Positions 30,192-44,614 of a stretch of DNA of 64,000 nucleotides are shown here, piece by piece; within the stretch, counting starts at the first letter, position 1; each line of letters starts with the position of its first letter. The DNA is from Bacteroidales bacterium (GTDB lineage Bacteria > Bacteroidota > Bacteroidia > Bacteroidales > GCA-2748055). The stretch is taken from positions 17,879 to 81,878 of the forward strand of contig JAXGMU010000004.1 in assembly GCA_040768485.1 (NCBI GenBank), given 5' to 3'. The position numbers were made by a program, and so were the translations under genes. A model generated the notes under the pieces. The model was not told the DNA's origin. It searched no databases and saw only the letters and a program-made list of their open reading frames with translations.

Positions 30192-30256
30192 GTCGTTGCT
30201 TTGAGATACATTTCCATCTGTCCAAAGTATGAAAAAACTGACGGAATCCCTTATTT

Positions 30257-33160
30257 TTGATGAAAACACTCCTTATGCCCATCAGCAAGCTGATCAGTGT
30301 ACCGCAGGGGATGGTCTCCCGTTTTCACGAACTTGAAAAGAAGGACAGGAAAGAATGGTTCTGCACCTCCGATCCGGAGGAAAAAAGGGCCGGATCGGGG
30401 GGAGGGACGGCCCACCTGCTGGCATCTGCTTACCGCTCCTTACGTTCGGGCGAAGGTTTCAGGAAATGGCTCGCCGCCGAAAAGCGGATGGTCATTCATT
30501 CTTCAGGGGAAAGCCGCCGGCTGCCGGCCTATGCTGCCACGGGGAAGTCACTGCTTCCCGTTCCGGTATTCCGGTGGTCCAAGGGACAGCACCTGGACCA
30601 GAAACTACTCGATTTACAGGTCCCCTATTATGAACGCATCCTGAAGAATGCGCCGGACAGATACCGGGTCCTGATCGCCAGCGGGGATGTGATGTTCATT
30701 TCATCGGACCGGTTCATGGACCTTCCCGAGGCGGATGTACTGGTGTTCGGTGTCTGGGTGGATGATCCGGTGGCCTCCCGGCACGGGGTGTTTTTCAGCC
30801 GCAGGGAAAAACAGGACACCCTCGCATTTGTGAAGCAGAAACCCTCCATAGAGGAATTGAGGAAGCTTTCCGGAGAATATTTCTACCTGATGGATTCGGG
30901 CATTGTGCTGCTGAATGAAACCACCACCATGCTCCTGATGAAAAGGTCGGGGTGGGATGAAAAGAAAGAAAATTTCCGGGACGGACTGCCGGATTACTAT
31001 GACCTGTACGGTGAAATGCTTGCTTCCTTCGGAACGGAACCGCAGGTCAGCGACCCGGAGTTGCAGGGGCTGCAGGTGAAATTGTACCCCCTGCACCAGG
31101 GGGAATTCTATCATTTCGGGAGCAACAGCGACCTGATCGATTCCACCCTGAAGCTCCAGAACCGGATAACCGACCAGCGCCTGAAACTGACCCGGGAACC
31201 GGACCACCACCCATCCATCTTCCAGCAGAATGCAGAGATCCGGATCAAATTCACCGAGCAAAACCACCATCTCTGGATCGAGAACTGCCATATCCCGGAA
31301 TCATGGAAACTGAACCACCACCATATCCTGACCGGGATCCCTGAGAATGACTGGGAGATTGAGCTCACGGCGGGGAACTGTGTGGATCTGGTCCCCCTGG
31401 GCAGGGACCGGTATGTGCTTCGGACCTATGGTTTTTCAGACAATTTTAGGGGGACCCCGGACAGAGGGGGCGCGTGGATGGAAGGACCGCTGACCGATTG
31501 GATGGAACAACGGAGGATCATTCCGGAGGAAGCTGGTATTTCACCGGGAGGATCCATGTTCGAGGCACCCCTGTTCCCGGTTCTTAAGAGGGAAGAAATC
31601 GGAAAGATGCTCCTTTTTATGGTGGGGAACGGGAGCGGCCATGAAGCGGCCTGGCAGGATCGGATGCGGGACCGGTGGATCCGGTGTGAGCGGTTGTCGG
31701 CGAGGGAACTGATTGCAAAAGCGGACATTCCGGCGCTGTACCGGCAAAGGCAGTCCCTGATGGTCCGCTCCCTCCCCCTGCTGGCCGCACATCACCGGAC
31801 CAGTATTTTTTACTACCTGGACCTGGAGAAGACCGCGGCCGATTACAGGGAAGCACACCTGGATCCCCCTGCGGCACTGGCACCCGGCGAACCGGTGATC
31901 AGGCGCATCAATGACAGCATGTTCCGTGCCAGGGTCGCCGGGACCAGGAAAATGGCCGAAAAGCATGAGCAACAGGCTTTCTCCATTTTGCGTGAGGCGA
32001 TGATCGACACCCTGAAACAGGCACCCGTCGCTCCCCACCGCAACCTGTTGGACGACCAGATCCTCTGGGGCAGGAGCCCGGTGAGGCTGGACCTGGCCGG
32101 GGGATGGACCGATACCCCGCCTTACTGCATCATGGAGGGGGGCAGGGTGGTGAACATGGCGGTGGAGCTGAACGGACAGCTGCCCTTGCAGGTCTATGCC
32201 CGTCCCCTTGAGGAACACAAGATCGTGCTCAGATCCATTGACCTGGGGATCAAGAAAGAAATCACAACTTTCGGGGAACTGGAAAAATATGACCGGCCGG
32301 GGGACGGATTTTCCATCCCCATGGCAGCGCTGGCGCTGGCAGGATTCAGCAACCGCTTCAGCGGGAAAACATTCCCTGACCTGGTCTCTCTCCTGAAGGA
32401 GTTCGGGTGCGGACTGGAGATGTCCCTGCTGGCCGCCGTGCCCAAGGGATCGGGACTGGGGACCAGCTCAAACCTGGCAGCCACGGTCATGGGAACCCTC
32501 AGCGAATTTTGCGGGCTTAACTGGGACAAACACGAGATCTCATACCGTACCCTGATCCTGGAACAGATGCTTACCACAGGCGGCGGCTGGCAGGACCAGT
32601 ACGGAGGGGTGTTCGAGGGGATCAAGCTGCTGGAGACCGCTCTCGGGATCCGCCAGTCGCCCCGCATCCGGTGGATCCCCGAGCAGGTTTTTTCCGGGGC
32701 GGAACGGGGGCAAATGGTAATGTTGTATTACACGGGTGTCACCCGTGTGGCCAGGGACATCCTGGGAGAGATCGTGAAGGGGATGTTTCTCAATTCGGCC
32801 CGTCACCTGGAGATCTTCAGCGAGATGAAACAGCACGCCGGTGAAACCTTTGACGCGCTTCTGGGCAATGACTATGAAGAGGTGGCCGGGAAGGTGGCCA
32901 TCAGCTGGGAGCTGAACCAGCGGCTGGACGAGGGGACCAATCCGCCGGTGATCAGGGAGATCATCAGGAGGGTGGATGATTACCTGCTGGGCTACAAGCT
33001 GCTGGGTGCCGGCGGGGGCGGATACCTGCTCATGTTTGCCCGCTCGCCCGATGCCGCGGTGAAGGTAAAAAACAACCTGGAGAATGACCCGCCCAACAAA
33101 CGGGCCCGGTTTGTTGATTTCGCCGTTTCACAGACGGGGTTCCAGGTATCCCGGTCCTGA
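30257..33160 (+). CDS. fkp: Bifunctional L-fucokinase / fucose-1-phosphate guanylyltransferase
   Basis: 967 aa. The N-terminus SRFHELEKKDRKEWFCTSDPEEKRAGSGGGTAHLL resembles Bacteroides Fkp as I remember it. The C-terminal GHMP-kinase motif is PKGSGLGTSSNLAA. Confidence 0.8.
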   Translation: MMKTLLMPISKLISVPQGMVSRFHELEKKDRKEWFCTSDPEEKRAGSGGGTAHLLASAYRSLRSGEGFRKWLAAEKRMVIHSSGESRRLPAYAATGKSLLPVPVFRWSKGQHLDQKLLDLQVPYYERILKNAPDRYRVLIASGDVMFISSDRFMDLPEADVLVFGVWVDDPVASRHGVFFSRREKQDTLAFVKQKPSIEELRKLSGEYFYLMDSGIVLLNETTTMLLMKRSGWDEKKENFRDGLPDYYDLYGEMLASFGTEPQVSDPELQGLQVKLYPLHQGEFYHFGSNSDLIDSTLKLQNRITDQRLKLTREPDHHPSIFQQNAEIRIKFTEQNHHLWIENCHIPESWKLNHHHILTGIPENDWEIELTAGNCVDLVPLGRDRYVLRTYGFSDNFRGTPDRGGAWMEGPLTDWMEQRRIIPEEAGISPGGSMFEAPLFPVLKREEIGKMLLFMVGNGSGHEAAWQDRMRDRWIRCERLSARELIAKADIPALYRQRQSLMVRSLPLLAAHHRTSIFYYLDLEKTAADYREAHLDPPAALAPGEPVIRRINDSMFRARVAGTRKMAEKHEQQAFSILREAMIDTLKQAPVAPHRNLLDDQILWGRSPVRLDLAGGWTDTPPYCIMEGGRVVNMAVELNGQLPLQVYARPLEEHKIVLRSIDLGIKKEITTFGELEKYDRPGDGFSIPMAALALAGFSNRFSGKTFPDLVSLLKEFGCGLEMSLLAAVPKGSGLGTSSNLAATVMGTLSEFCGLNWDKHEISYRTLILEQMLTTGGGWQDQYGGVFEGIKLLETALGIRQSPRIRWIPEQVFSGAERGQMVMLYYTGVTRVARDILGEIVKGMFLNSARHLEIFSEMKQHAGETFDALLGNDYEEVAGKVAISWELNQRLDEGTNPPVIREIIRRVDDYLLGYKLLGAGGGGYLLMFARSPDAAVKVKNNLENDPPNKRARFVDFAVSQTGFQVSRS

Positions 33161-33180
33161 AGATGTTTCACAGGCAGGAT

Positions 33181-33975
33181 TCATCTTGTAACCACGATCT
33201 TCTTGGACGGGGAACGCACATTGCCGGTTTCCACGTGGTACATGTATGTTCCGGGAGGAAGCTGACTTGCCGGCAGTACAAGCTGCTCCGTGGATGCTGT
33301 CACAGGACAGCTCAAAACCCTCCGGCCCCGGGCATCGAACAGCTCAAGCGATCCTGAATCACTACCCGGGGGCAACTGTACCGGGATATGAACCACCGAA
33401 CCGGCAGGGTTGGGGAATGGATTCCCGGTATTATAAGCGGAGTAGGGAATCTCTGATTTCGTGGCGGCCTCAGGAAGGGCATACACCTGGGTCTGCGTCC
33501 TGTATGGGATCACAGAGTAATCGTAAATATACACCAGAAATTTCCTGCCCTCATTTTCCGTATCGAGCAAACTGGAATATCCTGCTCCCGGGATGCTCAG
33601 CAGGACGTTCCCGTTCTCGTTGATGAGCCTGGACTCATACGTATAAAAGTAAGAATCTGTGGTGGGGACATACATGGAATAGGTGTAGAACAATTCCACC
33701 AGGTTGTCGCTGTTGAAGAGCTTTTCGGAAACAAACTGTACATTATACAGGTAATACCCTTCAGGGGCCGGCAGCGAAATGGTCTTGTACAGGCTGTGGT
33801 CCATCCGGTAGATACGGCATTCTTTATTGACCACGTCCATGGTGTAATACACCTCTCCAGTATTTTCCATCCGGCAGATGTTGGCGGAAACCGTGTAAAT
33901 GTGCTCAAGCGAGGGCTGTGCATGGAGCAACAATCCCGGGAGCCACAAGACGGCAATGATGATGCGGGTTTTCAT
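33181..33975 (-). CDS. Hypothetical secreted protein with a T9SS C-terminal sorting domain
   Basis: Start trimmed to MKTRIIIAVLWLPGLLLHAQ (cat at 33973-33975). The C-terminus is GNPFPNPAGSVVHIPV...GTYMYHVETG...KKIVVTR. Confidence 0.75.
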   Translation of the reverse strand: MKTRIIIAVLWLPGLLLHAQPSLEHIYTVSANICRMENTGEVYYTMDVVNKECRIYRMDHSLYKTISLPAPEGYYLYNVQFVSEKLFNSDNLVELFYTYSMYVPTTDSYFYTYESRLINENGNVLLSIPGAGYSSLLDTENEGRKFLVYIYDYSVIPYRTQTQVYALPEAATKSEIPYSAYNTGNPFPNPAGSVVHIPVQLPPGSDSGSLELFDARGRRVLSCPVTASTEQLVLPASQLPPGTYMYHVETGNVRSPSKKIVVTR

Positions 33976-34036
33976 CCTTTTTCGGGTTTTATTTATATCG
34001 TTTGTTGTTTCAGTAAAACAAGTCCCAACCCATCTC

Positions 34037-34672
34037 TCAGGGCTGGTCCAGCAGGTCCAGTCCCTCCAGTGCAGACGAGCCGCCGGGGGTATGCAGCAGG
34101 GCTTTCTGGAACAGCACCTTTGCTTCCCTGTAATTGCCCAGTTTGAAATATGACCAGCCCAGCATGGTGAGGGCGTCATAATCAAAGGGATAGAGGTTGA
34201 CCACCTTTTCGAAGTATTTCTTCGCGGTCTCGAAATCCTCCCTGCCATAATAGATCAGCCCGATCCTGTGCATGGCGATGGAATTGTTGGGGCAGATTTC
34301 CAGGATCTTTGCATACTGATCCATCACCATGGTCCAGTTTCCCATGGCAGCCCCGGGGTACACGATCCCGAACCTGGGTTCAATGGCATAGGGCATGAGA
34401 TTGACCGCCCTGTTGTAATAGGCCACGGATTCGGTAAAATTACCTGCCTGGTAGCTCAGCCAGCCGAGGCGCAGGTTGATCTCGTATGATTTTTCATCAT
34501 ACACCTTCTTCAGGCTGTTCACCGCGGCAAGGACCTCCCCGGTGGCTTCCTGGATGTAGCTCTGCTGGAAGGCGTCCTTGATCTCCTTGAACTCCTGTCC
34601 CCTTACAGAAATGACAGCAGAAATAAGCAGGCCGGACCACAGGCCCCGCCTCAGAATTTTTAAAATTTCCAT
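34037..34672 (-). CDS. Periplasmic TPR-repeat protein
   Basis: Signal peptide-like N-terminus and repeated TPR-like 34-aa units (YNRAVNLMPY..., AKKYFEKVVNLYPFDYDAL..., AKVLFQKALLHTPG). The ATG lies 13 nt inside the upstream gene. Confidence 0.75.
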   Translation of the reverse strand: MEILKILRRGLWSGLLISAVISVRGQEFKEIKDAFQQSYIQEATGEVLAAVNSLKKVYDEKSYEINLRLGWLSYQAGNFTESVAYYNRAVNLMPYAIEPRFGIVYPGAAMGNWTMVMDQYAKILEICPNNSIAMHRIGLIYYGREDFETAKKYFEKVVNLYPFDYDALTMLGWSYFKLGNYREAKVLFQKALLHTPGGSSALEGLDLLDQP

Positions 34673-36015
34673 GATAATCCTCCGTAAATTGATATGGTGT
34701 GATAGGTGATTGCATTGCCCTGATCGACCAGGTTCGGATCAAGAGGAATGAACCTGCTCCGGTATGCTGCCCACCGGCCGCCCAGGTATACCATTGATCC
34801 ATTCGATGAAACGGGCACTGACACGGACAGACCGGCCTTTTTTCCTGGCTTTTCCCCGAAACTGTTAAAGATAATGGCTCCGTAATTTTCGGTATAGTTC
34901 TCCATCTCGCCCGATGAAGCATTCAGTTCAATCCATGCTTTTTCAGCGATGGAGAAGCCGAACAGGATCTCGGGGATGACGTTGAGCACTCCTTCCCCGG
35001 TGCCGGTCCTGTAAAGGGAATTGGCGAAACCGCCGGCATACAGGTTCAGGTTTCCCAGGGGGTACCAGGTGAGCCCGATCCTGCTCTGGACCTGCTCCAT
35101 GTCGTTCAGATCCGAGTAATATCCGCCAAGGTGAAGATCCACCGGACCGATCCGCTGTTTCAATGCCAGACCGGCCAGGAAATCAGTTTTTTCCTGGAAG
35201 ACAAGGATCATGTTGTTCCCTCCCTGGTATCCGGTCCCTGCATCTGCGAAAACCTGGTAGCGCAGGCGGACCACGTGGAATGCGGGGATCAATGTCAGTC
35301 CCGACAGGGTGGTCAGTCGGGGTGAGAGGTAATACTGATGCTGCCTGACCTGCTGGGCTGTCGTATAGTACCTGCTGATCCCGTCGAAATAATAATAGAG
35401 ATTCTTTTTCGACAGGAAGGTATATGCATGTTCCAGGGAGATCCCCGGGGCAATGGCGTTTGAAAGGGAGGCTGAAAGATTAGAGAATCCGGAGGTGACG
35501 TACTGGACACCGGGAACCGGTGCAGAAATGGATACATCGGGACTCTCCAGGATCTCCCTGTTCAGGTTATGGCTGATGAGGTATTCAACCCCGGACATGC
35601 CGAAAAAGGCTGGTTCGGCAGGGGGCATTTTCAGTGACAGATCGCCCCTGAACCGTTTTCTGAGAAGATCTGCCTGCTCCTTCTCACCGGCATAGATCCT
35701 GCAATAATAGAGATATTCAAGGGCCGCCGGGTCCTGGTGGTTCCACTCGAGCGCCCTGGTGAAATGGGTGGCCGCCTTCCGGTAATTCCTGTTGCTGTAA
35801 TAAGCGATCCCCAGCCGCATCCGCAGATAATAATAATCGATCTCCTCCCTGAGCGCTTCCTTCCCCGTATGGATGAGGCTGTCCCACTTTCCTTCAATAT
35901 AATACCGGTAGGTTTCCCTGTCGAACCTGCTGAATGAATCCTGTTCCTGTGCAATGCCCTGCCGGGATATGCCCAGAAGCAGCATGAAAAGGGTGATGAC
36001 GGTCAGTCTGCACAT
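34660..36015 (-). CDS. Outer-membrane protein with an N-terminal TPR module and a C-terminal beta-barrel
   Basis: Signal peptide MCRLTVITLFMLLLGISRQGIAQ. TPR-like N-terminal region of about 130 aa. The Tyr/Gly-rich alternating strand pattern ends in YGGLSWKF (terminal Phe). Confidence 0.7.
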   Translation of the reverse strand: MCRLTVITLFMLLLGISRQGIAQEQDSFSRFDRETYRYYIEGKWDSLIHTGKEALREEIDYYYLRMRLGIAYYSNRNYRKAATHFTRALEWNHQDPAALEYLYYCRIYAGEKEQADLLRKRFRGDLSLKMPPAEPAFFGMSGVEYLISHNLNREILESPDVSISAPVPGVQYVTSGFSNLSASLSNAIAPGISLEHAYTFLSKKNLYYYFDGISRYYTTAQQVRQHQYYLSPRLTTLSGLTLIPAFHVVRLRYQVFADAGTGYQGGNNMILVFQEKTDFLAGLALKQRIGPVDLHLGGYYSDLNDMEQVQSRIGLTWYPLGNLNLYAGGFANSLYRTGTGEGVLNVIPEILFGFSIAEKAWIELNASSGEMENYTENYGAIIFNSFGEKPGKKAGLSVSVPVSSNGSMVYLGGRWAAYRSRFIPLDPNLVDQGNAITYHTISIYGGLSWKF

Positions 36016-38195
36016 GTTGCTTCCAGGTGAAGTTTGCCGGAATCCACTTCAAAGGTCCGGATCCCTTTTTCGTTGATGGTCATGGAAAAATCAAGCCTGC
36101 GCAGCAATTTTCCCGAAATCAGGTTGCGGGCGGCGGACCGCAGCCGGATCTCCGAAGGGGACATCTCGTTATCGATCCATTCATACCGGCATTCGAATTC
36201 GGATCGCAGGAACTTCCAGAAAGGGGCCACAAAATCCTGCAGTGCCAGCAGCGGGTGCCGGAAGATCAAATTGAGCGGGTACCGGTCCGAGATGACCAGG
36301 TCCTGGTAGAATCCCTGCTGAACCTGAAATGCCGCCAGGAAAAAATAATAAAGCAGCGTATGTTTATTCCCGCTGTAATGGGTGAAATAGATCAGGTCCC
36401 CGTCGTTGATGAAATAAGCCACGGCACCCGATTGTTCACACCGGATATAGGGATTGTTGTAGGCATCCGTGTTCACCTCCCAGGCAGCTTCTTTCATGTC
36501 CGCGCTCCCTTTCACGGTAAAACGGAACCTTTTGCCCGGGATCAGGTGGAAAGCCTGGTGAAGGAGGCCGTTCCTTTCAATGTTTGAGACAAGGTCATCT
36601 TTCCGGGGATAAGCATAGGATTCCAGGCTGAACGGCTGGCGGGAATGAAGGATATAGTGGCTGACGGGGAATTTCAGCGTCACCGATCCGATATAAGGGG
36701 TGGCCTGCACCTGGTAATGAAGGTGTGGATAGGGAGAGCGTCCTGAATTCCCGCATCTTCCGATCTCGTCCCCTTCTTTTACCCTGTCTCCCTCACGGAC
36801 CCTGATGGTCCCCTCTTTCAGGTGGCTCAGGGAGGTGTACAGATGTTCGTCGTGCCGGATGACCACCGTGTTGCCCCAGTTATCCTTCAGATTGACCTCC
36901 CCCACGGGATTGTCAGGAACATGGTCCGCGACAAAAGCGATGGTGCCGTCCGCCGGCGCCACGACCATTTTGTCGTAACAGTGATAGTCGGTGAGCGCAT
37001 CTCCGCTTCCCATGTACTGTTTGCCCTCGGTACCGGTAATGACGAAATCCCACGCATGCCGGAACTCATCCTTGTGAGTATATTCCCCGTCATGGGCCTG
37101 GGATACCGTCCAGGCACCCAGGAACGGAAGCCTGATCCTCACCCTCTCGCGGTGCCGGAAGCGCACCACATCGTTGTGGAATGCATACAGGTTCTTTTCG
37201 GGGGAGTTATGCTGGATCAGCACTTCGGCCAGTTTGAGAGATGGTTCAAGCCTGAATTTCAGGGCATAGAGGAACAAAAGCACCACCAGGTTGAAGGGCA
37301 GTGAATACACCGGCAGGCTGAATACGGCAAGAACCCGGGACAGGCTGATGGTGATCATGGCCACGATGGGGATCAGCAGGATCACCCAAAGGAAGGAACG
37401 TTTGGAGGGGATGATGAAAAATCCCCCCACCGCGATGGATGTCAGGATGTAATTGAATCCGATATAGCTGTAGCTCACGTCGGAAATATGTGCCCCGATC
37501 AGTTCATAAAACAGGAACGCCGTATAAAAACCGATCAGCGAAAGTGAGAAGGCGATCCTTGAGAACAGCAGCAGTCCCGTCGCCAGCAGGATGCCCGAAA
37601 GCAGGTTGAACTGGAACAGGATGGCCGCCAGGGAGAGAAAGTAGATCCTCAGGGACCTGGCCAGATCCACGTCGTTCCACCATTCATACACCCGGACAAG
37701 CACATCTCCCCCGATGGTATACAGGTCATTGAAGGTGTAGATCCCCCGCTCGCTGATCCCCAGGGCCGTGAATTCCCTGGTGGCCAGGGTCATGATCCAG
37801 ATGGCCAGAAGAAAGGGGACGGAGAGGAACGGCAGGGCATACTTGCCGATCACTCCCTGGAGTGAAACGGCAATCAGCAGGGTCAGGATGGCCGCCATGA
37901 TGACCACCACGATGAGCAGCAGGTCGGGTTTGAAATAGATCCCAAGTCCCAGTCCCACCAGCAGGCTGTTGAAGCCGAACACCCCCCTGGCAATGTTCCG
38001 CCTGTCAAGTCCCAGCAGAAATCCTGCCAGGTTGGTAACGATCACCGAAAGCAGTCCCATCAGCCCCGCATAGATGTCGAAGAAGGTGACCAGCATGAGG
38101 ACAAAGGAGAACAGCAGCTGGTCCGAGAAGAAGACCTGCCCGTAGCTGTTGGGAACGGACCTGATAAAGAGCTTTATGTCGCCGGAGCGTTTCAA
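36003..38195 (-). CDS. Fusion protein: urea-transporter-family membrane domain + M23 metallopeptidase + uncharacterised C-terminal domain
   Basis: The N-terminal 330 aa or so are polytopic, with UT-like NSYGQVFFSDQ and GVFGFNSLLVGLGLG. The M23 core is VVAPADGTIAFV, WGNTVVIRHDEHLYTSLSHLK and GNSGRSPYPHLHYQV. The last 220 aa or so are unassigned. Confidence 0.75.
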   Translation of the reverse strand: MKRSGDIKLFIRSVPNSYGQVFFSDQLLFSFVLMLVTFFDIYAGLMGLLSVIVTNLAGFLLGLDRRNIARGVFGFNSLLVGLGLGIYFKPDLLLIVVVIMAAILTLLIAVSLQGVIGKYALPFLSVPFLLAIWIMTLATREFTALGISERGIYTFNDLYTIGGDVLVRVYEWWNDVDLARSLRIYFLSLAAILFQFNLLSGILLATGLLLFSRIAFSLSLIGFYTAFLFYELIGAHISDVSYSYIGFNYILTSIAVGGFFIIPSKRSFLWVILLIPIVAMITISLSRVLAVFSLPVYSLPFNLVVLLFLYALKFRLEPSLKLAEVLIQHNSPEKNLYAFHNDVVRFRHRERVRIRLPFLGAWTVSQAHDGEYTHKDEFRHAWDFVITGTEGKQYMGSGDALTDYHCYDKMVVAPADGTIAFVADHVPDNPVGEVNLKDNWGNTVVIRHDEHLYTSLSHLKEGTIRVREGDRVKEGDEIGRCGNSGRSPYPHLHYQVQATPYIGSVTLKFPVSHYILHSRQPFSLESYAYPRKDDLVSNIERNGLLHQAFHLIPGKRFRFTVKGSADMKEAAWEVNTDAYNNPYIRCEQSGAVAYFINDGDLIYFTHYSGNKHTLLYYFFLAAFQVQQGFYQDLVISDRYPLNLIFRHPLLALQDFVAPFWKFLRSEFECRYEWIDNEMSPSEIRLRSAARNLISGKLLRRLDFSMTINEKGIRTFEVDSGKLHLEATCAD

Positions 38196-38241
38196 CAGAT
38201 CAGTGTTTTATTCAGGTTGAGGGGATCATTTTTTTGCGGGA

Positions 38242-39594
38242 TCATTTCAGATGGTCCGGGATCGCCTCCTGCTGCCTGACCAGTTCCATGTGTTCTTTTT
38301 TCCTGATCACATGGACCTTCCCGTCCAGGTCGATGAGCACCACATTGGGCCGGAGGGTGATGAACTGCATCCACTGGGTCATGTTGTAGGCACCGATGCG
38401 TTTGATCACGAAATGATCCCCTTTCTTGAGCAGGGGGAAGGCGATGGCATCCCGGACCACATCGATGTTCATGCAGAGGGGGCCGAAAATGGTGGTCTCT
38501 TCCAGGTGCTCAGATACCGGTGCAGCCGGATACACCTCATGATCGTACCAGAAGGAGGTGAACAACAGGTTCACTCCCACATCCACGATGGTAGCCCGGT
38601 TCCCCGAGGAAAGCCGCTTGTTGGCGATGACGGTTCCGAGCAGGTAACCCGCGTCATCGATCAGCGCCCTTCCGCTTTCAAGGATCAGCGTGGGCAGGTT
38701 CCGCGGATTGAGTTGCGAGTTGAGGATGGCCGATGAGATGGCCTCTGCGTATTCCTCGAATGAAGGGGCCGTATCGGAGCCCGGGTAATAGGCACCCTTA
38801 AGGGTGTTCTGGGAGGCAAATCCTCCCCCGAGATCGATATACCTGATGCTGGTACCATACTTCTTCTCGATCCCGTATGCCAGATCGGCCAGCTTGCCGG
38901 CAGCCACCTTGTAGGCACTTGCCGCGAGCATGTAAGTGCCTATATGCGCATGCAATCCCACCAGTTCCAGTTTTTCGTTCATCATGATCCGGTTGATGGC
39001 GTCCCACGCGTCCCCGTTTTCGTAGTTGAACCCGAAGCGGTCCCACATGGGATAAATCCCCGTATCCATGTTCACCCGGATGGCCACCTTGGGACGTTTT
39101 TCAACGTTTTCGGATATGGCGATGATGGAATACAATTCATCGAAGTGGTCGATGTGGATCAGGGAGTCATTCACAATGGCTTTTCTCAGCTCCTCGTCTG
39201 TCTTGTCCGGCCCGTTGAAAATGATCTGGCTCCCTTTCACGCCGTTCAGGAGGGCTTTGTCATATTCAAAGCCCGAAACCACCTCCGCCCATGAACCTTC
39301 CTGGTGGAAGATGCGGCACACCGCATCCAGGTAATTGGTCTTGTAGGACCAGGCGAACTGCACCCTGGGATACCGGGTCGTAAAAGCATGCCTGGCTTTC
39401 CTGAACTTTTCCCGGATAGTTCTTTCGGATATAACGTACAGGGGCGACCCGTGTTCGTCCAGCAGTTCTGAAACAGAAACGTCATCAATATGGGTGAGGG
39501 GTTCGGTTGCCACCTTCATCCCGAACTTGCTGGGCATGCCCGCCTGCAGTCTTTTGATAAAAGGTCTCTCGAAAGGCTTTTTTTCCATGATCAT
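38242..39594 (-). CDS. Group IV PLP-dependent decarboxylase (Orn/DAP/Arg decarboxylase fold)
   Basis: GSPLYVISERTIREKFRKARHAF..FAWSYKTNY (PLP-Lys context), IDLGGGF, and the C-terminal beta-barrel segment GPLCMNIDV. The start is trimmed to MIMEKKPF (cat at 39592-39594), 5 nt after the ATP-grasp stop. Confidence 0.8.
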   Translation of the reverse strand: MIMEKKPFERPFIKRLQAGMPSKFGMKVATEPLTHIDDVSVSELLDEHGSPLYVISERTIREKFRKARHAFTTRYPRVQFAWSYKTNYLDAVCRIFHQEGSWAEVVSGFEYDKALLNGVKGSQIIFNGPDKTDEELRKAIVNDSLIHIDHFDELYSIIAISENVEKRPKVAIRVNMDTGIYPMWDRFGFNYENGDAWDAINRIMMNEKLELVGLHAHIGTYMLAASAYKVAAGKLADLAYGIEKKYGTSIRYIDLGGGFASQNTLKGAYYPGSDTAPSFEEYAEAISSAILNSQLNPRNLPTLILESGRALIDDAGYLLGTVIANKRLSSGNRATIVDVGVNLLFTSFWYDHEVYPAAPVSEHLEETTIFGPLCMNIDVVRDAIAFPLLKKGDHFVIKRIGAYNMTQWMQFITLRPNVVLIDLDGKVHVIRKKEHMELVRQQEAIPDHLK

Positions 39595-39599
39595 TTGTA

Positions 39600-40643
39600 T
39601 TACAGTTCGCCCTGTGTGGACAATTTTTCGTATTCTTTCAGATCGGTGATCAGGTCGTAGGAGTAACGGATGAACATCTTTCCCACCTCGTATGTACTGA
39701 ATGGTTTCACTTCCAAGCCCAGGGCCAGTTTGACCATGGCTTCGGGAAGGTTCTGTCCCGCGCCCACCGCCAGGTAGACCCAGGCGGGGATCCTCGGATT
39801 GATCTCGATGATGTACAGCTCGTTCCGGTGAGACTTGATCAGTTCCAGTTCCATCCCTCCCCGCCACTTTGTCTTTTCCATGATCTCCCTGGTCAGATCC
39901 AGCATCTTCCTGTCGTCCAGGGTGATCCCCGCCCAGGCCTTGCCTTTGTCGGTAATATACTGTTTCCGCATGGGAACGGCACCGATGGTATTTCCCCGGC
40001 CGTCACCCAGGGCCACCACATTCACCTCGGTCCCCTTGATGAACTCCTGGATGATCACCGGAACACCCCATTTGGCAGTGATCTTGTTAAAGTGCATCCG
40101 CACCTGCTCTTCGTTGTAGGCCAGGTAGGCATCATAGAATTTACCCTTCACCATCAGGGGGTATTCAAAGTCATCTTTCAGTTTCCTGATCTCGTCCGGT
40201 CCCGTGATCGATTTGCTGAAGGGGACATGCAGGTCATATTTTTTGCCGAATTCGGGAAGATGTTCCTTGTGCCGTTCCTCGAACTGTTCCAGGGTGGGGA
40301 TGAATGTCCTGATCCCCGCATCTTCCAGCACTTTTTCCGACCGCATGAAGGCATACAGCTCTGCATCAAAGTTGGGCACCACCACATCGATGGGATCCCT
40401 GCGGTGGATCTCCAGGATCCTGTTTATCAGGACACCCGATCCTTCCGACGGATAGGGTACCTGGTAGGTCTTGTCCACCACCCCGCGCATATAAATGGCC
40501 GGCTCCAGGTTTTCATAGGCAAGCCCGATGATCCGCGGGTCGAAGTATTCGGATTCCCGGATGCCACGGATGACCGGTACCCCGGGTCCCGGATTGTCCG
40601 TATTGTTCAATCCGGAGAGGGCGACGGTGATCTTAGTTTTCAT
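39600..40643 (-). CDS. ATP-grasp family ligase
   Basis: Pre-ATP-grasp N-terminal domain, YPLMVKGKFYDAY, VIIQEFIKGTEVNVVAL and ELYIIEINPRIPAWVYLA. The start is set at MKTKITVALSG (cat at 40641-40643); upstream alternatives are 40649 and 40664. Confidence 0.8.
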   Translation of the reverse strand: MKTKITVALSGLNNTDNPGPGVPVIRGIRESEYFDPRIIGLAYENLEPAIYMRGVVDKTYQVPYPSEGSGVLINRILEIHRRDPIDVVVPNFDAELYAFMRSEKVLEDAGIRTFIPTLEQFEERHKEHLPEFGKKYDLHVPFSKSITGPDEIRKLKDDFEYPLMVKGKFYDAYLAYNEEQVRMHFNKITAKWGVPVIIQEFIKGTEVNVVALGDGRGNTIGAVPMRKQYITDKGKAWAGITLDDRKMLDLTREIMEKTKWRGGMELELIKSHRNELYIIEINPRIPAWVYLAVGAGQNLPEAMVKLALGLEVKPFSTYEVGKMFIRYSYDLITDLKEYEKLSTQGEL

Positions 40644-40887
40644 CCCCATCGTCCAGAAGTTCAAACTGCCTGAGCATGCTCAGGAAGTCAAAGTAATACT
40701 TCTCAAAGCTGGCCTCGTCCACGTCATATTCCGCGGTCATGAACGCTTTGATCTCTTCCAGTGATTTGCCATTGGCCAGATGGTTCAGGATCTCCCGGCC
40801 TACCTGGTTCATTGAGTAGGAATCGCCGGTTGTGGGATTGAAGACAAATCCGGAATCACTGACGGCAATATTCTTTTTGATCCGCAT
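40633..40887 (-). CDS. PqqD-family (RRE-like) small protein with an acidic C-terminal tail
   Basis: 84 aa. SGFVFNPTTGDSYSMNQVGREILNHLANGKSLEEIKAFM matches the PqqD-family pattern as I remember it. The protein ends LLDDGDEN. Confidence 0.7.
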   Translation of the reverse strand: MRIKKNIAVSDSGFVFNPTTGDSYSMNQVGREILNHLANGKSLEEIKAFMTAEYDVDEASFEKYYFDFLSMLRQFELLDDGDEN

Positions 40888-41063
40888 GATAGATGGAATG
40901 GTTCGTATTGGTATGGTAAAAATCAGGAATCTTCATCTGTTGGCTGTTACACTATTCCGGGAAAATTTTATAATTTTCAACCTCCGGCATCAGATTTGAA
41001 TGCAACATAAATGCGTTCTTAATACGACCGGGGAGATGATTTTGTTTCCCCGCCTTCGGATTT

Positions 41064-41639
41064 ATGATTACCACTACGATCCATATCAAGAACATGGTCT
41101 CCCGGTGCTGTATTGTACTGATCAAAGAGAAACTGGAAAAGGCCGGGATACTTGTGGATGAAATCAGCCTGGGAAAAGCGACCATCCGATTTGACGAAAC
41201 ACGCGTCAGCCGCGATGACATCAGGCAGGTGCTCCTGGAACTGGGGACGGACCTCATCGAGGGCAGGGAACAGCAGCTTGTGGAGAAGATAAAGCTGGCG
41301 GTGATCGAGCTGATCCATTACATGAACAATGTGGATTCCATCGTACGAAAGTCGGATTACCTGGTGGAAAAACTGGGGCTCAGTTATTCCTACCTGTCCC
41401 GGATCTTCTCTTCCCATGAACACATCACCCTGGAACGGTATATCATCCTCAACAAGATCGAGCGGATCAAGGAACTGATCGACCAGGAAGAGTTCACCCT
41501 GAGCGAAATTGCCTTTATGATGGACTACAGCAGTGTCCAGTACCTTTCCAGCCAGTTCAGGAACATCACCGGGATGACGGTGAGCGAATACAGGGCCGGC
41601 GACCGTTCCTCCAAAAGGCCCATCGATCTGCTTACCTGA
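41064..41639 (+). CDS. AraC-family transcriptional regulator with an HMA-like N-terminal domain
   Basis: The N-terminus TTTIHIKNMVSRCCIVLIKEKLEKAGI has a ferredoxin-like HMA pattern with vicinal Cys. The C-terminal AraC HTH is LSEIAFMMDYSSVQYLSSQFRNITGMTVSEYR. Confidence 0.8.
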   Translation: MITTTIHIKNMVSRCCIVLIKEKLEKAGILVDEISLGKATIRFDETRVSRDDIRQVLLELGTDLIEGREQQLVEKIKLAVIELIHYMNNVDSIVRKSDYLVEKLGLSYSYLSRIFSSHEHITLERYIILNKIERIKELIDQEEFTLSEIAFMMDYSSVQYLSSQFRNITGMTVSEYRAGDRSSKRPIDLLT

Positions 41640-41783
41640 TTTTATAACATTTTTGCTGAATTTTATGAGCTTCCTCCGGAGGAATTTCCAAAACTTTGTA
41701 TTTACAAATATAGATATATGGATACATAAGCAGGCCAGGTGCGGATCGTATCCATCGATGTAAAACAAAAAAACGATCATATC

Positions 41784-42434
41784 ATGAAGACAATGATGGC
41801 AAAGACCGCAGGAGTGTTATTGATTTCAGCCGGACTCTTTCTTCCGTTCACGCAGTGCACGGAAGGGGCTGCCATGGATGAAGGAAACGGCATTGCCGGT
41901 GATCCTGTTCTGAAAGGTTTTATTTCACAGCCATTGACCGAAGCTGAAAAAGAAGGGATATTATTCCTCAGGGAGGAGGAAAAACTGGCCCGTGATGTAT
42001 ATCTTTATCTCTATGACAGGTTCCCGCTCAGGCCTTTTCTGAACATTTCAAAGAGCGAACAGGTCCATATGGATGCCATGAAGTATTTGATTGACACATA
42101 TGGTCTGGAAGATCCGGTGGGGGACAATCCGGAGGGTGTATTTAAAAATGAAACCCTTCAGCAACTGTACGATGAGCTCATCCAAATGGGCAGTGAAGGC
42201 AGGGAGGAGGCGCTGAAGGCCGGAGCATTTATCGAGGAGGTGGATATTATCGACCTTCAGACGGAGTTGAATGAAAATGTGGAAAATACAGATGTCAGAA
42301 GGGTCTATACAAACCTCTGCAATGCCTCGGAGAATCATTTAAGGGTATTTGTCCGTGTACTGGGCAGATACGGCGTGGAATATGAACCGGTAAAGCTTGA
42401 AAGGGAGGAATTTCTGCGAATCATGAGTGAATAA
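41784..42434 (+). CDS. DUF2202 (ferritin-like) lipoprotein
   Basis: Start trimmed to MKTMMAKTAGVLLISAGLFLPFTQC (lipobox-like). EAEKEGILFLREEEKLARDVYLYLYDRF and SEQVHMDAMKYLIDTYG match the DUF2202 pattern. Confidence 0.7.
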   Translation: MKTMMAKTAGVLLISAGLFLPFTQCTEGAAMDEGNGIAGDPVLKGFISQPLTEAEKEGILFLREEEKLARDVYLYLYDRFPLRPFLNISKSEQVHMDAMKYLIDTYGLEDPVGDNPEGVFKNETLQQLYDELIQMGSEGREEALKAGAFIEEVDIIDLQTELNENVENTDVRRVYTNLCNASENHLRVFVRVLGRYGVEYEPVKLEREEFLRIMSE

Positions 42435-43243: not shown

Positions 43244-44614
43244 TCAGGACTCCCGGCAGGGGAGTGCCATCCTGATGGTGGTCCCTTTTCCTTTTTCGGA
43301 TCGCAGTGAGATTTGTCCCCCGTGATTGTGGATGATCTGGCGGCAGAGGCTGAGACCGATGCCGGAGCCGTCAGTCTTGGTGGAAAAGAAGGGAACAAAG
43401 ACCTGATCCACGATCTCTTCCGGGATCCCCGGTCCGTTATCGGTCACCTCAATGATGATCCGGTCCAAAACCCGCCTGACCTTGATGATGAGCGTTGGTT
43501 CAACTGCTCCCTCCAGTGCCTCCAGGGCGTTCTTGACCAGGTTGATCAGCACCTGTTTTACCTGGGCTTCATCAGCCCTGATGCTGCATTTCGGGGGACC
43601 GGGAACGATGGTCAGGGCGATGTTTCTGTCAGTCAGCTCCTGGTTGTATAACTGCCGGATCTCATCCAGCAAGCCGGAGATCCGGACCTCCTTCAGATCG
43701 GGTTCGGGAAGCCGGGAGAGCTCCCTGTAATTGCCGATGAACCTGGTCAGGGCCCGGTTCCTGTCGGATATGGTCTTCAGTGCCATGAACAGATCGTCGA
43801 TGGTCTTCTGACTGATCTCTCCCGCCGACCTGATCCGGCCTTCCTCCTGCAGGAGCATCATCCCGGTTTCTGTCAGGGAAGAAAGGGGAGTGAGACTGTT
43901 CATGATCTCGTGGGCCATGATGCGGCTGATGGTGCGCCATGATTCCATTTCCTGCTGTTCAATTTCCGGTTCTATGTCCTGGAATGTCACGATCCTTACC
44001 GGGGCTCCGCCCACCTTTACGGTATTGAGCAGCACCAGCAGCTTCCTGCCTTCCGGGGTGCCCGGAAGGGGGATCATTTCTCTTCCGGAGGTCCCCATCG
44101 ACCGGATGGCCTCAGCGAATACCGGCGCCCTGGTCTCGATTTCCCCCCAGCCGGGCTTGCCGGTATGATAAATTCCAAGTGTCTGCAGGGCAAGCGGATT
44201 GATCAGCTGGATCCGGAATTCCTCATCCAGTGTGATCACGGCTGTATGGATGTGTTCCAGGATGGTCCGGAGGTACTGGTACTGGGTTTCCTTCTCGATC
44301 TTTGCCGAGGCGATGGCCCGGATGATTTGCTGGGCCGATCCGGCCAGTCCCCCGAACCCCAGTCCGGATACCTGTTCTTCCAGCCTCCTGTTGAGGTCCC
44401 CGTGAAGCACCGCTTCGAGCATAGACTGAACGACCCTGTTGGTGCGGGTGAGCGTTCGGAACAGTTCGGCGATCAGAAGCAGCAGGAGCAGCGACACCAG
44501 TACAACGGAGAAGAATCTTCCCTGCTGGTGGATGATCATTACCAGGAGGAACATGGTTGCCAGGATCAGGATCATCCGGATGGAGATGCGGATGATAAAT
44601 CTATTGAATACCAT
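43244..44614 (-). CDS. Sensor histidine kinase (NtrB/NtrY-like)
   Basis: Two N-terminal TM helices, H-box MAHEIMNSLTPL, N-box LINLVKNALEA, and G-boxes DNGPGI and GSGIGLSLCRQI. Confidence 0.85.
   Translation of the reverse strand: MVFNRFIIRISIRMILILATMFLLVMIIHQQGRFFSVVLVSLLLLLLIAELFRTLTRTNRVVQSMLEAVLHGDLNRRLEEQVSGLGFGGLAGSAQQIIRAIASAKIEKETQYQYLRTILEHIHTAVITLDEEFRIQLINPLALQTLGIYHTGKPGWGEIETRAPVFAEAIRSMGTSGREMIPLPGTPEGRKLLVLLNTVKVGGAPVRIVTFQDIEPEIEQQEMESWRTISRIMAHEIMNSLTPLSSLTETGMMLLQEEGRIRSAGEISQKTIDDLFMALKTISDRNRALTRFIGNYRELSRLPEPDLKEVRISGLLDEIRQLYNQELTDRNIALTIVPGPPKCSIRADEAQVKQVLINLVKNALEALEGAVEPTLIIKVRRVLDRIIIEVTDNGPGIPEEIVDQVFVPFFSTKTDGSGIGLSLCRQIIHNHGGQISLRSEKGKGTTIRMALPCRES

Follow-up and report, generated by a model that had tools for sequence, protein, structure and literature searches.

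The locus at positions 33181-40887 of the window, the 64,000-nucleotide stretch of Bacteroidales DNA analyzed here, encodes a biosynthetic system that is conserved but has not been characterised. Its six translationally coupled genes stay together as an invariant operon in many Bacteroidales genomes, and the core recurs in several further phyla; a seventh gene, encoding a secreted protein, is optional. The PqqD-like protein, the ATP-grasp ligase, the decarboxylase and the UT-domain membrane protein constitute a module whose members are joined by gene fusions. The product is most likely a small amide-linked, decarboxylated compound that is released at the urea-channel-like membrane protein.

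The genes of the locus and the adjoining regulator are as follows.

40633-40887, minus strand: PqqD-like small protein, 84 aa (Pfam PqqD)
39600-40643, minus strand: ATP-grasp amide ligase of a divergent family, 347 aa (Pfam ATPgrasp_Ter, ATP-grasp_3)
38242-39594, minus strand: PLP-dependent decarboxylase of the Orn/DAP/Arg fold, FslC-like, 450 aa (Pfam PF02784, PF00278)
36003-38195, minus strand: polytopic UT-M23 fusion, TTG start (Pfam UT, M23)
34660-36015, minus strand: TPR-barrel protein with signal peptide, 451 aa (weak TPR matches, sequence features)
34037-34672, minus strand: periplasmic TPR protein with signal peptide, 211 aa (TPR_2 and many TPR families)
33181-33975, minus strand: T9SS cargo protein, accessory, 264 aa (Por_Secre_tail, TIGR04183)
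41064-41639, plus strand: divergently transcribed AraC-family regulator (HTH_18, HTH_AraC)

Organization and conservation of the operon

The junctions were established by reading the minus strand directly, together with the ORF listing, and the domains were called with Pfam and NCBIfam profile searches. Both agreed with an earlier note on this DNA, which had placed seven co-directional minus-strand genes with the same overlaps and gaps and had assigned PqqD, ATP-grasp, decarboxylase, UT plus M23, TPR and T9SS C-terminal domains. The ATP-grasp gene, with its ATG at 40643, overlaps the PqqD-like gene by 11 nt (a second in-frame ATG lies at 40649), and the decarboxylase ATG at 39594 lies 5 nt past the ATP-grasp stop at 39600. 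After a 46-nt gap beyond the decarboxylase stop (38242) the UT-M23 gene starts with TTG as read from the strand; its ORF has no in-frame ATG ahead of the conserved motif at the N-terminus of UT. Two overlaps of 13 nt follow, between UT-M23 and the TPR-barrel gene (ATGTGCAGACTGA, 36003-36015) and between the TPR-barrel and TPR genes (ATGGAAATTTTAA, 34660-34672). The T9SS cargo ATG at 33975 is separated from the TPR gene by 61 nt, and the stop is at 33181.

A relative of UT-M23 is present in 301 species genomes. Within the neighbourhood set of 80 loci, the PqqD, ATP-grasp, decarboxylase, UT-M23, TPR-barrel and TPR genes have identical order and strand in 50 out of the 50 species-level genome loci with sufficient flanking DNA, where UT-M23 identity is as low as 52%. 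The operon is also intact in a locus with 49% ATP-grasp identity and unrelated flanks (L088). The arrangement is thus beyond chance, and the synteny bears out the conserved operon that had been proposed. Of the seven genes originally grouped, the first six stand as an invariant core, whereas the T9SS cargo falls outside it, being found in 29 of the 80 loci and at varying position: it follows the TPR gene in 21, separates ATP-grasp from decarboxylase in 6 and has the opposite orientation in 2.

The cytoplasmic enzymes

The PqqD-like protein matches Pfam PqqD (1.3e-09); its top NCBIfam match, TIGR04353, is slightly under the cutoff, and it also matches lasso and other peptide-chaperone PqqD families. 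Its gene lies immediately upstream of the ATP-grasp gene at every locus and a natural PqqD+ATP-grasp fusion exists (P0214). The protein is therefore probably a partner or recognition subunit of the ligase. To our knowledge, PqqD-like domains are known solely as peptide binders, yet no peptide gene is conserved nearby, a point that runs counter to the pathway proposed below: no conserved precursor peptide gene or small ORF was found in the 80 loci or in the GC-rich variants, and the earlier note had seen no precursor at the locus itself.

The ATP-grasp ligase scores under every NCBIfam cutoff, and its top match in a PDB profile search is the ATP-grasp domain of CPS, at 2.5e-09 only. The family comprises 219 representative clusters at E<=1e-30, tandem and fused forms included, and its alignment revealed invariant residues at K166/K168, E265/E267 and E280-x-N282-x-R284. 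A housekeeping PurK was rejected on basis of the cutoffs and the lack of a close solved relative. The decarboxylase has as top PDB match 7kh2 (FslC, N-citrylornithine decarboxylase; 6e-60), compared to 1.7e-38 for LysA and 1.7e-25 for BtrK. The active-site stretch 'GPLCMNID' carries CMN, similar to the 'CMQ' of FslC, where LysA has 'CES'. An assignment as housekeeping LysA was rejected, considering this replacement and an NCBIfam lysA score of 221 against a cutoff of 297.9; judged by its sequence the enzyme is nearest to FslC and not to LysA. Placement of the two enzymes in the PurK and LysA families had been named beforehand as an outcome that would refute the proposal; the profile searches place both outside these families. 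A natural fusion of ATP-grasp and decarboxylase (P0167) strengthens the pairing within the 'ligate plus decarboxylate' logic put forward earlier, though not the order of the steps. In all, the locus belongs neither to housekeeping nor to defence, and it is no classical RiPP cluster.

The UT-M23 fusion and the module in other phyla

The fusion protein consists of a UT domain (residues ~11-312; Pfam 5.9e-61), an M23 domain (~350-500; 3.3e-17) and a conserved beta-rich C-terminal domain (~500-730) that has no Pfam match and a weak LolA/RseB-like resemblance. In Foldseek the UT part, whose AF2 model is of low confidence, matches the channels dvUT and UT-B; the matches of the M23 part are the M23 proteins ShyA, DipM and Csd. 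Of the M23 residues, D383, H458 and H491-x-H493 do not vary in the alignment, and H380 is conserved to 90% or more. The first motif is spaced H-x-x-D where the canonical spacing is H-x-x-x-D.

The conserved unit is wider than Bacteroidota and consists of PqqD, one or more ATP-grasps, decarboxylase, a UT-enzyme fusion and a periplasmic TPR protein. PqqD, tandem or duplicated ATP-grasp, decarboxylase, UT-SIR2(-GNAT) and a signal-peptide TPR protein occur together in four loci (L087, L090, L093, L094), and the UT-SIR2 family carries the taxon labels Methylomirabilota/Rokubacteria, Anaerolineae, Nitrospinota, Planctomycetota and Betaproteobacteria. No obvious barrel gene is found in the non-Bacteroidota variants. 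In another variant (L092), which carries a gene for a 202-aa signal-peptide protein, UT is paired with an alpha/beta hydrolase that may be periplasmic, since an extra predicted TM helix precedes it.

SIR2 requires NAD+ and GNAT requires acetyl-CoA, and no TM helix is predicted between UT and SIR2/GNAT. Because other phyla have these enzymes in the place of M23, this domain most likely lies in the cytoplasm, and hence is probably not an envelope peptidase. The N-terminus and the post-UT linker of the window protein are K/R-rich. Sirtuins and M23 enzymes of the MepM/ShyA type cleave amides at the epsilon-amino groups of Lys or DAP, and the enzyme fused to UT probably cleaves an amide as well. 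UT pores are narrow conduits for small, neutral amides, and a passage for charged amines is not obvious.

Envelope components and genomic neighbours

The TPR-barrel protein, conserved in 68 loci, combines an N-terminal TPR region with a beta-rich C-terminal domain that ends in ...GGLSWKF, and most orthologues have an aromatic last residue. G, S and Y are abundant in the sequence, amphipathic alternating segments are numerous, and no TM helix is predicted past the signal peptide. It is a probable outer-membrane beta-barrel; of the TPR plus barrel architecture suggested earlier, the TPR part was recovered by profile and the aromatic end is present, while the barrel is read from sequence features. 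The TPR protein (TPR_2, 1.1e-23) is conserved in 65 loci with 50-86% identity. Large periplasmic TPR and TPR-barrel proteins typically handle polymers or proteins, a counterpoint to a small-molecule pathway. The T9SS cargo has a signal peptide, a conserved ~165-aa domain and a type-A C-terminal sorting domain (Por_Secre_tail, 8.8e-09).

An AraC-family gene adjoins the PqqD-like gene in 29 of the 80 loci, in either orientation, and on basis of this neighbourhood the regulator is a candidate for control of the operon. Its N-terminal domain has no HMA match. Other neighbours are DUF2202 (17/80 loci), CzcA/B-type efflux genes (L049, L051, L068), a Cu-type P-ATPase with an HMA protein (L001) and ArsR-type regulators (L087, L090). 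No mur, pbp or fts genes were found among the operon neighbours.

A proposed pathway and its alternatives

We tentatively favour, at somewhat less than even confidence, a pathway of tethered ligation, decarboxylation and release that is coupled to a UT-type channel, with the TPR and barrel proteins acting beyond the inner membrane. The PqqD-like protein would dock on the ATP-grasp and present a partner with a carboxylate or an amine, probably a protein of the operon or a peptide or protein whose gene lies elsewhere. The ligase would form an amide via the side-chain (omega) group of an amino acid, such that the alpha-amino-acid end stays free, and the FslC/BtrK-like PLP enzyme would strip the alpha-carboxylate. 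The hydrolase at the cytoplasmic end of the channel (M23; elsewhere sirtuin with or without GNAT) would cut the tethering amide, and the small amine or amide thus freed at the pore mouth would cross the inner membrane, with the TPR and TPR-barrel proteins handling it from there on, in periplasm and outer membrane. In some Bacteroidales the T9SS-secreted protein would be an additional extracellular component. Candidates for the product are a polyamine- or metallophore-like compound, an aminoacyl-amine and a short polyamide; substrate, product, direction of transport and passage over both membranes are what we infer. Against this reading stand the narrow UT pore, the TPR and TPR-barrel proteins, the missing peptide gene, the L092 variant, the H-x-x-D spacing of M23 and the low confidence of the AF2 model for UT.

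A RiPP-like modification of a peptide or protein is unlikely. The PqqD-like protein would then be a true RRE that recruits either the T9SS cargo prior to its export or a ribosomal peptide or protein whose gene lies elsewhere; the ATP-grasp would add an amino acid to a peptide carboxylate or amine, decarboxylation would yield an amine cap, M23 or sirtuin would act as leader or processing amidase, and the modified peptide would leave by another route. The lasso and peptide-chaperone matches fit this scheme, as do the PqqD+ATP-grasp fusion, which parallels RRE-maturase fusions, the usual preference of sirtuins for peptide-bound lysines and the secreted-protein gene within the operon of some lineages (T9SS cargo, 6 loci; the 202-aa protein, L092). 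However, no small ORF is conserved, the cargo, which bears a signal peptide for Sec, was found in only 29/80 loci, PLP decarboxylases of the Orn/DAP/Arg fold require a free alpha-amino acid, and the strict conservation of UT would lack an explanation, as a peptide cannot pass the channel. We consider it distinctly unlikely that ligase and decarboxylase make a polycarboxylate or polyamine chelator, similar to rhizoferrin, staphyloferrin B or vibrioferrin, under AraC control and with export via UT, TPR and barrel. The rhizoferrin enzyme FslC is the nearest characterised relative of the decarboxylase and metal-related neighbours recur, but not at all loci; moreover, the core lacks an IucA/IucC synthetase, a TonB-dependent receptor and uptake genes, PqqD and the fused hydrolase have no role in known siderophore routes, and the AraC regulator lacks the HMA match.

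The two remaining alternatives centre on the envelope. It is improbable that alternating ligation and decarboxylation extend a primer into a polyamide or poly-amino-acid, with the fused hydrolase freeing or trimming chains that are threaded out and passed to TPR protein and barrel. Periplasmic TPR partners are universal, a probable outer-membrane barrel accompanies them here, variants have tandem ATP-grasp modules, and in butirosin biosynthesis BtrJ and BtrK, the latter a relative of the decarboxylase, alternate Glu ligation and decarboxylation. Nevertheless, a known polymer synthase is absent, polymer transit via a UT fold has no precedent, and the barrel is known from sequence features and has no obvious counterpart outside Bacteroidota. 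Peptidoglycan or envelope remodelling is very improbable: M23 would be a periplasmic endopeptidase on a UT-like anchor, organised by TPR and outer-membrane partners, with the cytoplasmic enzymes supplying a substituent for peptidoglycan, for example a stem peptide that is amidated or linked to a polyamine. M23 does resemble the peptidoglycan enzymes MepM, ShyA, DipM and Csd, and TPR and outer-membrane partners are frequent among regulators of divisome and elongasome hydrolases. Yet the NAD- and acetyl-CoA-dependent enzymes that follow UT in other phyla imply the cytoplasmic side, the UT-M23 linker obeys the positive-inside rule, and mur, pbp and fts neighbours are absent.

Comparison with known systems

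A search of the available literature yielded neither a published function for the operon nor a publication on the system, in line with the earlier statement that no characterised system has this composition. An envelope polymer route would be likened to export by PgaA, BcsC and AlgK/AlgE, with the barrel here predicted. The Bacteroidales locus joins UT to M23, whereas the other phyla join it to SIR2, with or without GNAT. For the tethered pathway that we favour, the decarboxylase relatives provide the models: FslC acts on an N-delta-acylated ornithine and BtrK on a tethered Glu.

Organization of the operon

Reading the minus strand from 33100 to 41100, together with an ORF listing, showed that all seven genes and every junction described in the earlier note are present. 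Its domain calls (PqqD, ATP-grasp, Orn/DAP/Arg-fold decarboxylase, UT plus M23, TPR and T9SS signal) were borne out by both Pfam and NCBIfam.

Genes of the operon in the window
40633-40887, minus: PqqD-like gene (Pfam PqqD, 1.3e-09)
ATG 40643, stop 39600-39602, minus: ATP-grasp gene (ATPgrasp_Ter and ATP-grasp_3)
ATG 39594, stop 38242-38244, minus: decarboxylase gene (Orn_Arg_deC_N and Orn_DAP_Arg_deC)
36003-38195, minus: UT-M23 gene, a urea-transporter-fold domain fused to an M23 peptidase domain (Pfam UT, 5.9e-61; Peptidase_M23, 3.3e-17)
Start within 36003-36015, stop within 34660-34672, minus: TPR-barrel gene (451 aa)
Start within 34660-34672, stop 34037, minus: TPR gene (TPR repeats)
33975 to 33181, minus: T9SS cargo gene (Por_Secre_tail)

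The ATP-grasp ATG (40643) lies inside the PqqD-like gene, giving an 11-nt overlap, and an alternative in-frame ATG is found at 40649. Five bases separate the ATP-grasp stop from the decarboxylase ATG, and a gap of 46 nt separates the decarboxylase stop from the UT-M23 gene, which starts with TTG and has no in-frame ATG ahead of the conserved UT N-terminal motif. Two overlaps follow, ATGTGCAGACTGA (36003-36015) between the UT-M23 stop and the TPR-barrel start, and ATGGAAATTTTAA (34660-34672) between the TPR-barrel stop and the TPR start. The cargo gene starts 61 nt after the TPR stop. Directly after that stop, and ahead of the cargo gene, a terminator-like hairpin is followed by GACTTGTTTT (34025-34046, minus strand). 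Coupling of the cargo gene to the six-gene core may thus be incomplete. In a promoter and terminator scan of the region the counts equalled the shuffled-sequence expectation, with this hairpin as the sole notable site.

Conservation of the core and accessory genes

In a pattern scan with one genome per species, UT-M23 relatives were encoded in 301 genomes. The top 80 of these, which were retrieved, are all MAGs and are mostly labelled Bacteroidales or Bacteroidota, three of them carrying Marinimicrobia or Neomarinimicrobiota labels. The earlier note had asked for synteny in related genomes, and tblastn with the window proteins found the six genes collinear and co-directional in every one of the 50 loci with sufficient flanking DNA. 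UT-M23 identity among these complete loci is as low as 52%, and the flanking genes vary from locus to locus.

The T9SS cargo protein carries a type-A C-terminal sorting domain (PF18962, 8.8e-09; TIGR04183, 2.8e-09). Homologues of its gene were found in 29 of the 80 loci and not in the rest. The gene follows the TPR gene in 21 loci, lies on the opposite strand in two, and in six (L065, L069, L075, L076, L079 and L082) sits between the ATP-grasp and decarboxylase genes. This variable position and limited occurrence mark it as a lineage-specific accessory. That it has been inserted within the operon speaks for a genuine functional connection. Thus, of the seven-gene unit proposed earlier, six genes form an invariant core and the seventh is an accessory.

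Several other genes lie around the operon in the window.

Neighbouring genes in the window
41064-41639, plus: AraC-family regulator, divergent from the operon
41739-42434, plus: DUF2202 protein
43244-45974, minus: histidine kinase and sigma-54 response regulator, 2.4 kb upstream of the operon
30257-33160, plus: Fkp-type fucokinase/fucose-1-phosphate guanylyltransferase-like bifunctional gene, convergent with the cargo gene
28515-30269, minus: GH43 xylosidase, beyond the Fkp-type gene

An AraC-family regulator stands beside the PqqD-like gene in 29 of the 80 loci, in either orientation. The N-terminal ~70 aa of the window protein (MITTTIHIKNMVSRCC...) resemble a small metal-binding domain and have no Pfam match; an HMA domain was considered and rejected, as Pfam gives it no support. 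A DUF2202 gene is nearby in 17 of the 80 loci, CzcA/CzcB-type efflux genes adjoin the operon in L049, L051 and L068, and in L001 a Cu-type P-ATPase and an HMA protein are found next to it. Metal-related neighbours are hence a recurring, though not universal, link. Kinase/regulator pairs similar to that of the window occur directly beside two operons of other genomes in which a sirtuin domain replaces M23 (L090, 5172-8029; L093, 1-1884; kinases 64% identical mutually), and a specific tie of the window pair to those systems was rejected because only the catalytic cores are alike. The Fkp-type gene keeps its place beside the operon in 18 loci only, those of the closest relatives, and therefore represents local synteny outside the system.

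The decarboxylase and the ATP-grasp protein

The nearest solved relative of the decarboxylase is the N-citrylornithine decarboxylase FslC (7kh2; 6e-60), followed by LysA (1.7e-38) and BtrK (1.7e-25). In NCBIfam, too, FslC is its best match, with 240 bits (cutoff 500), and lysA TIGR01048 scores 221.3 (cutoff 297.9). Its active-site sequence GPLCMNID is close to the GPSCMQHD of FslC, whereas LysA has C-E-S/T. The sub-cutoff scores and the C-M-N motif argue that the enzyme is not a primary-metabolism LysA paralogue, and its conserved neighbourhood lacks a lysine-biosynthesis context. The substrate is probably an amino acid of which the side chain is already tied up.

In the ATP-grasp protein the nucleotide- and Mg-binding residues are invariant. 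A phmmer search against the PDB found no relative, a 16-sequence profile reached just the CPS ATP-grasp domain (2.5e-09), and the protein falls below all NCBIfam cutoffs. The earlier note had named assignment to housekeeping families as grounds for giving up its proposal; such a reading of the two enzymes (PurK, LysA) was rejected on the family scores, the profile match and the motif. An exhaustive homologue search returned 219 representative clusters at E<=1e-30, among which many proteins of ~710 aa are tandem ATP-grasps. Two homologues, L089 10001-11056 (46% identity) and L091 10001-11047 (43%), occur without PqqD, decarboxylase or UT, one beside a PorZ-like gene and the other amid glycan, MBOAT and M1-peptidase genes. 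As these stand alone in unrelated contexts, the ATP-grasp family is broader than the system described here.

Fusions and variants in other phyla

The wider set of ATP-grasp relatives included natural gene fusions, of PqqD to ATP-grasp (P0214) and of ATP-grasp to decarboxylase (P0167), which show the ligase to be the working partner of both the PqqD-like protein and the decarboxylase. It also revealed loci in which the same enzymes are combined with other partners.

Gene content of variant loci (fusions joined by a plus sign)
L088: six-gene UT-M23 operon again, ATP-grasp 49% identity, unrelated flanks
L087: TPR (signal peptide), PqqD+ATP-grasp, second ATP-grasp paralogue, decarboxylase, UT+SIR2+GNAT
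L090, L093: TPR (signal peptide), PqqD, tandem ATP-grasp, decarboxylase, UT+SIR2
L094: TPR, PqqD, tandem ATP-grasp, decarboxylase, UT+SIR2, NAD-synthase-like protein, GNAT
L092: PqqD, secreted 202-aa protein, tandem ATP-grasp, decarboxylase, UT+extra TM+alpha/beta hydrolase
L084-L086: PqqD, ATP-grasp+decarboxylase, 637-aa unknown protein

The recurrence of these contexts identifies PqqD, one or more ATP-grasps, an FslC-like decarboxylase and a UT-enzyme fusion as the unit that is stable in evolution; in most cases a periplasmic TPR protein goes with it. The UT-SIR2 family carries the labels Rokubacteria/Methylomirabilota, Anaerolineae, Nitrospinota, Planctomycetota and Betaproteobacteria, and the core module thus extends beyond Bacteroidota.

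In the Betaproteobacteria-labelled L094 (9640-11105) the operon extends to a NAD-synthase-family protein (PF02540) and a GNAT, which may provide charge-neutralising tailoring or NAD supply. In L092 (8233-10893) the UT domain is followed by a Cys-rich, sirtuin-zinc-ribbon-like region without a SIR2 Pfam match, a predicted TM helix and an alpha/beta hydrolase (DLH/S9-like). The hydrolase is a third type of UT fusion partner and may be periplasmic, because the extra predicted helix precedes it.

The UT-M23 fusion and the envelope proteins

The UT domain spans residues 11-312 (Pfam UT, 5.9e-61) and has Foldseek matches to dvUT and UT-B. The protein scores 122.5 against the urea transporter family TIGR03441 (cutoff 274.6), and urease and urea carboxylase genes are absent from its conserved neighbourhood. 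In the AF2 model the M23 and C-terminal domains are confident and the UT domain is of low confidence. The M23 domain matches ShyA, DipM and Csd in Foldseek. Its residues D383, H458 and H491-x-H493 are invariant among 42 sequences and H380 is at least 90% conserved, the first motif being H-x-x-D and not H-x-x-x-D; given this conservation of the Zn-binding catalytic residues, the peptidase looks active. The last 230 aa (residues 500-730; 36003-36698, minus strand) make up a conserved domain that is rich in beta structure and without a Pfam match. Modelled alone (AF2 pLDDT 67.7), it gave weak matches, TM ~0.3, to LolA/LolB/RseB-like half-barrels, folds that usually bind hydrophobic ligands.

The 451-aa protein has a signal peptide, an N-terminal TPR region (weak matches) and no TM helix. 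It is G/S/Y-rich and contains numerous alternating segments of amphipathic character. It ends in ...GGLSWKF, and most orthologues likewise have an aromatic C-terminal residue; its beta-rich part of ~300 aa does not match PgaA, BcsC, AlgK/AlgE or other families. These features are consistent with a putative outer-membrane barrel.

Location of the M23 domain and proposed mechanism

The earlier note had described an inner-membrane protein carrying a peptidase, and the variants suggest on which side of the membrane that peptidase lies. SIR2 requires NAD+ and GNAT requires acetyl-CoA, and in the UT-SIR2 variants neither is separated from UT by any TM helix; their presence in the homologous slot therefore points to a cytoplasmic C-terminal partner of UT. 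No TM helix lies between UT and M23 either, and in the window protein the N-terminus and the post-UT linker are K/R-rich, which agrees with this; a crude hydropathy topology of the UT domain was uninformative. The M23 domain is therefore best read as an amidase of the cytoplasm, and probably not as an enzyme that cuts peptidoglycan. Sirtuins strip acyl groups off lysine epsilon-amines, and MepM/ShyA-type M23 enzymes cleave the amide on the DAP epsilon-amine. That two unrelated enzymes with shared chemistry fill one slot suggests that the slot cleaves an N-omega amide.

We tentatively favour a scheme, put at somewhat below even chances as a whole, in which the PqqD-like protein would present a partner to which the ATP-grasp joins an amino acid via a side-chain group. 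The decarboxylase would then strip the free alpha-carboxylate of the ligated amino acid, the channel-fused amidase would cut the tether to free a small amine or amide product at the UT pore, and the TPR and barrel proteins would act past the inner membrane. The reversed order, decarboxylation followed by ligation as in MfnA/MfnD, is an alternative. A more specific version, which we regard as a long shot, would be a hitherto unrecognised route for making and exporting an amide compound. In it, units such as Glu or Asp are ligated via their side-chain carboxylate to an amine tether and then decarboxylated to unmask the next amine. The resulting side-chain-free oligo- or polyamide of poly-GABA or poly-beta-alanine type, or neutral aminoacyl-amine, would be severed from the primer by the M23 or sirtuin domain on the channel and threaded through an amide-selective UT-fold pore to the TPR and barrel proteins. 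If true, the UT fold would serve as an export conduit tied to a biosynthetic enzyme, which would be a new function for it.

RiPP-like or protein modification would also fit the PqqD domain and the preference of sirtuins for peptides. This is unlikely, considering that no precursor gene was found in the loci and that the UT channel would be left unexplained. None lies upstream in the window, the gaps of five distant loci hold just shadow ORFs, and small-ORF clustering in the 80 loci gave just shadows of neighbouring genes; a precursor may, however, be encoded elsewhere. The likeness to FslC and the recurrent metal neighbours (DUF2202, CzcA/B, Cu-ATPase, ArsR) bring a metallophore to mind. We hold this to be quite unlikely, as an NIS synthetase and uptake genes are missing and the N-terminal domain of the AraC regulator has no HMA match.

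Export of a polymer would account for the universal TPR partners, the putative barrel and the tandem ligases, yet the UT fold has no known precedent for polymer passage, which makes this reading very unlikely. Least probable is peptidoglycan remodelling, against which the inferred cytoplasmic location of M23 speaks. A role in defence was rejected, none of the seven proteins matching PADLOC models. We also rejected a LysW-like carrier role for the PqqD-like protein, with attachment at its acidic tail. Although that end of the protein is acidic in Bacteroidales, the final residue is not conserved (E, N, D, Q, K, A, S, T or I), and the tail is absent in distant variants (L088) and internal in the P0214 fusion.

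The initial proposal of an uncharacterised operon that moves an amide-linked, decarboxylated product across both membranes thus stands as regards the conserved operon and its enzymes, whereas the export is hypothetical, the cargo is accessory, M23 is probably cytoplasmic and the module is wider than Bacteroidota. If the tethered scheme holds, there would be a testable function for a cluster carried by hundreds of uncultured species of Bacteroidales, and for the core module in Marinisomatota-labelled MAGs, Methylomirabilota, Nitrospinota, Chloroflexota, Planctomycetota and Betaproteobacteria. It would partner a PqqD-like 'peptide chaperone' with an ATP-grasp ligase and a PLP decarboxylase, a pairing that to our knowledge does not occur in RiPP or siderophore chemistry. 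The UT fold would have been recruited repeatedly into a biosynthetic machine, fused to unrelated amide-cleaving enzymes; we know of UT proteins otherwise solely as passive urea channels. The locus also offers an entry point in the search for a novel metabolite or polymer from Bacteroidales of anaerobic sediments and digesters.

Comparison with known systems

In FslA/FslC (Francisella, rhizoferrin), SbnH (staphyloferrin B) and PvsA/PvsE (vibrioferrin), an amide ligase and a DAP-decarboxylase-fold PLP enzyme act on a side-chain-acylated amino acid. Our operon shares with FslA/FslC this pairing and the C-M-(N/Q) motif of the decarboxylase. It differs in that the ATP-grasp and PqqD-like proteins replace the IucA/IucC NIS synthetase, and in having TPR proteins as well as a UT-hydrolase fusion; neither an IucA/IucC synthetase nor genes for siderophore uptake occur among the operon genes and conserved neighbours.

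Butirosin BtrI/BtrJ/BtrK/BtrG constitute a carrier-tethered AHBA side-chain pathway, in which BtrG-type release is by gamma-glutamyl cyclotransferase. There, as proposed here, a small partner, an ATP-grasp and a DAP-decarboxylase-fold enzyme handle a tethered amino acid that the last enzyme untethers or deprotects, and its two rounds of ligation have a counterpart in the tandem ATP-grasps of the variant loci. Unlike in butirosin, the small protein is PqqD-like and not a phosphopantetheinylated ACP (no operon protein has a PP-binding domain), the proposed release enzyme is an M23 or sirtuin fused to a membrane channel, and an aminoglycoside context is missing. In the LysW/LysX and PEARL/TglA-type systems a small protein or peptide serves as the scaffold on which an ATP-dependent ligase assembles an amino-acid-derived product, and a metallopeptidase releases it, much as in the proposed scheme. 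The operon lacks the conserved C-terminal Glu of LysW and the tRNA-dependent ligase of the PEARL type.

As in RRE RiPP systems (PqqD/PqqE, lasso B1), the PqqD-like protein adjoins or is fused to, and is translationally coupled with, a modifying enzyme, in this case the ATP-grasp, next to which it is found in all loci. Those systems differ in having a precursor gene, in their partners, here ATP-grasp and PLP decarboxylase, and in an ABC exporter, here replaced by a UT-type channel. PCATs have a hydrolase fused at the cytoplasmic side of a membrane conduit, as is probable here, and the PgaA, BcsC and AlgK/AlgE exporters combine TPR with a barrel, as would the TPR protein and putative outer-membrane barrel downstream of the conduit here. 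Unlike in PCATs and TPR-porin exporters, the conduit has a urea-transporter fold without ATPase and the putative barrel is small; no glycosyltransferase or known polymerase is encoded in the operon as an inner-membrane polymer synthase.

A literature search combining UT, PqqD, ATP-grasp, FslC and RRE retrieved nothing beyond a 2026 survey (PMC12998343) that names the UT-then-C-terminal-M23 architecture in bacteria. That survey gives the architecture alone, without neighbourhood, partner enzymes or function. The search found no published function, in agreement with the earlier note's view that no characterised system has this composition, and for each of the families compared, the locus lacks one or more of the features that define it. 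We do not rate it as a categorically new system but as a known logic, the proposed tethered ligation and decarboxylation, that is combined with an unprecedented membrane component across several phyla.
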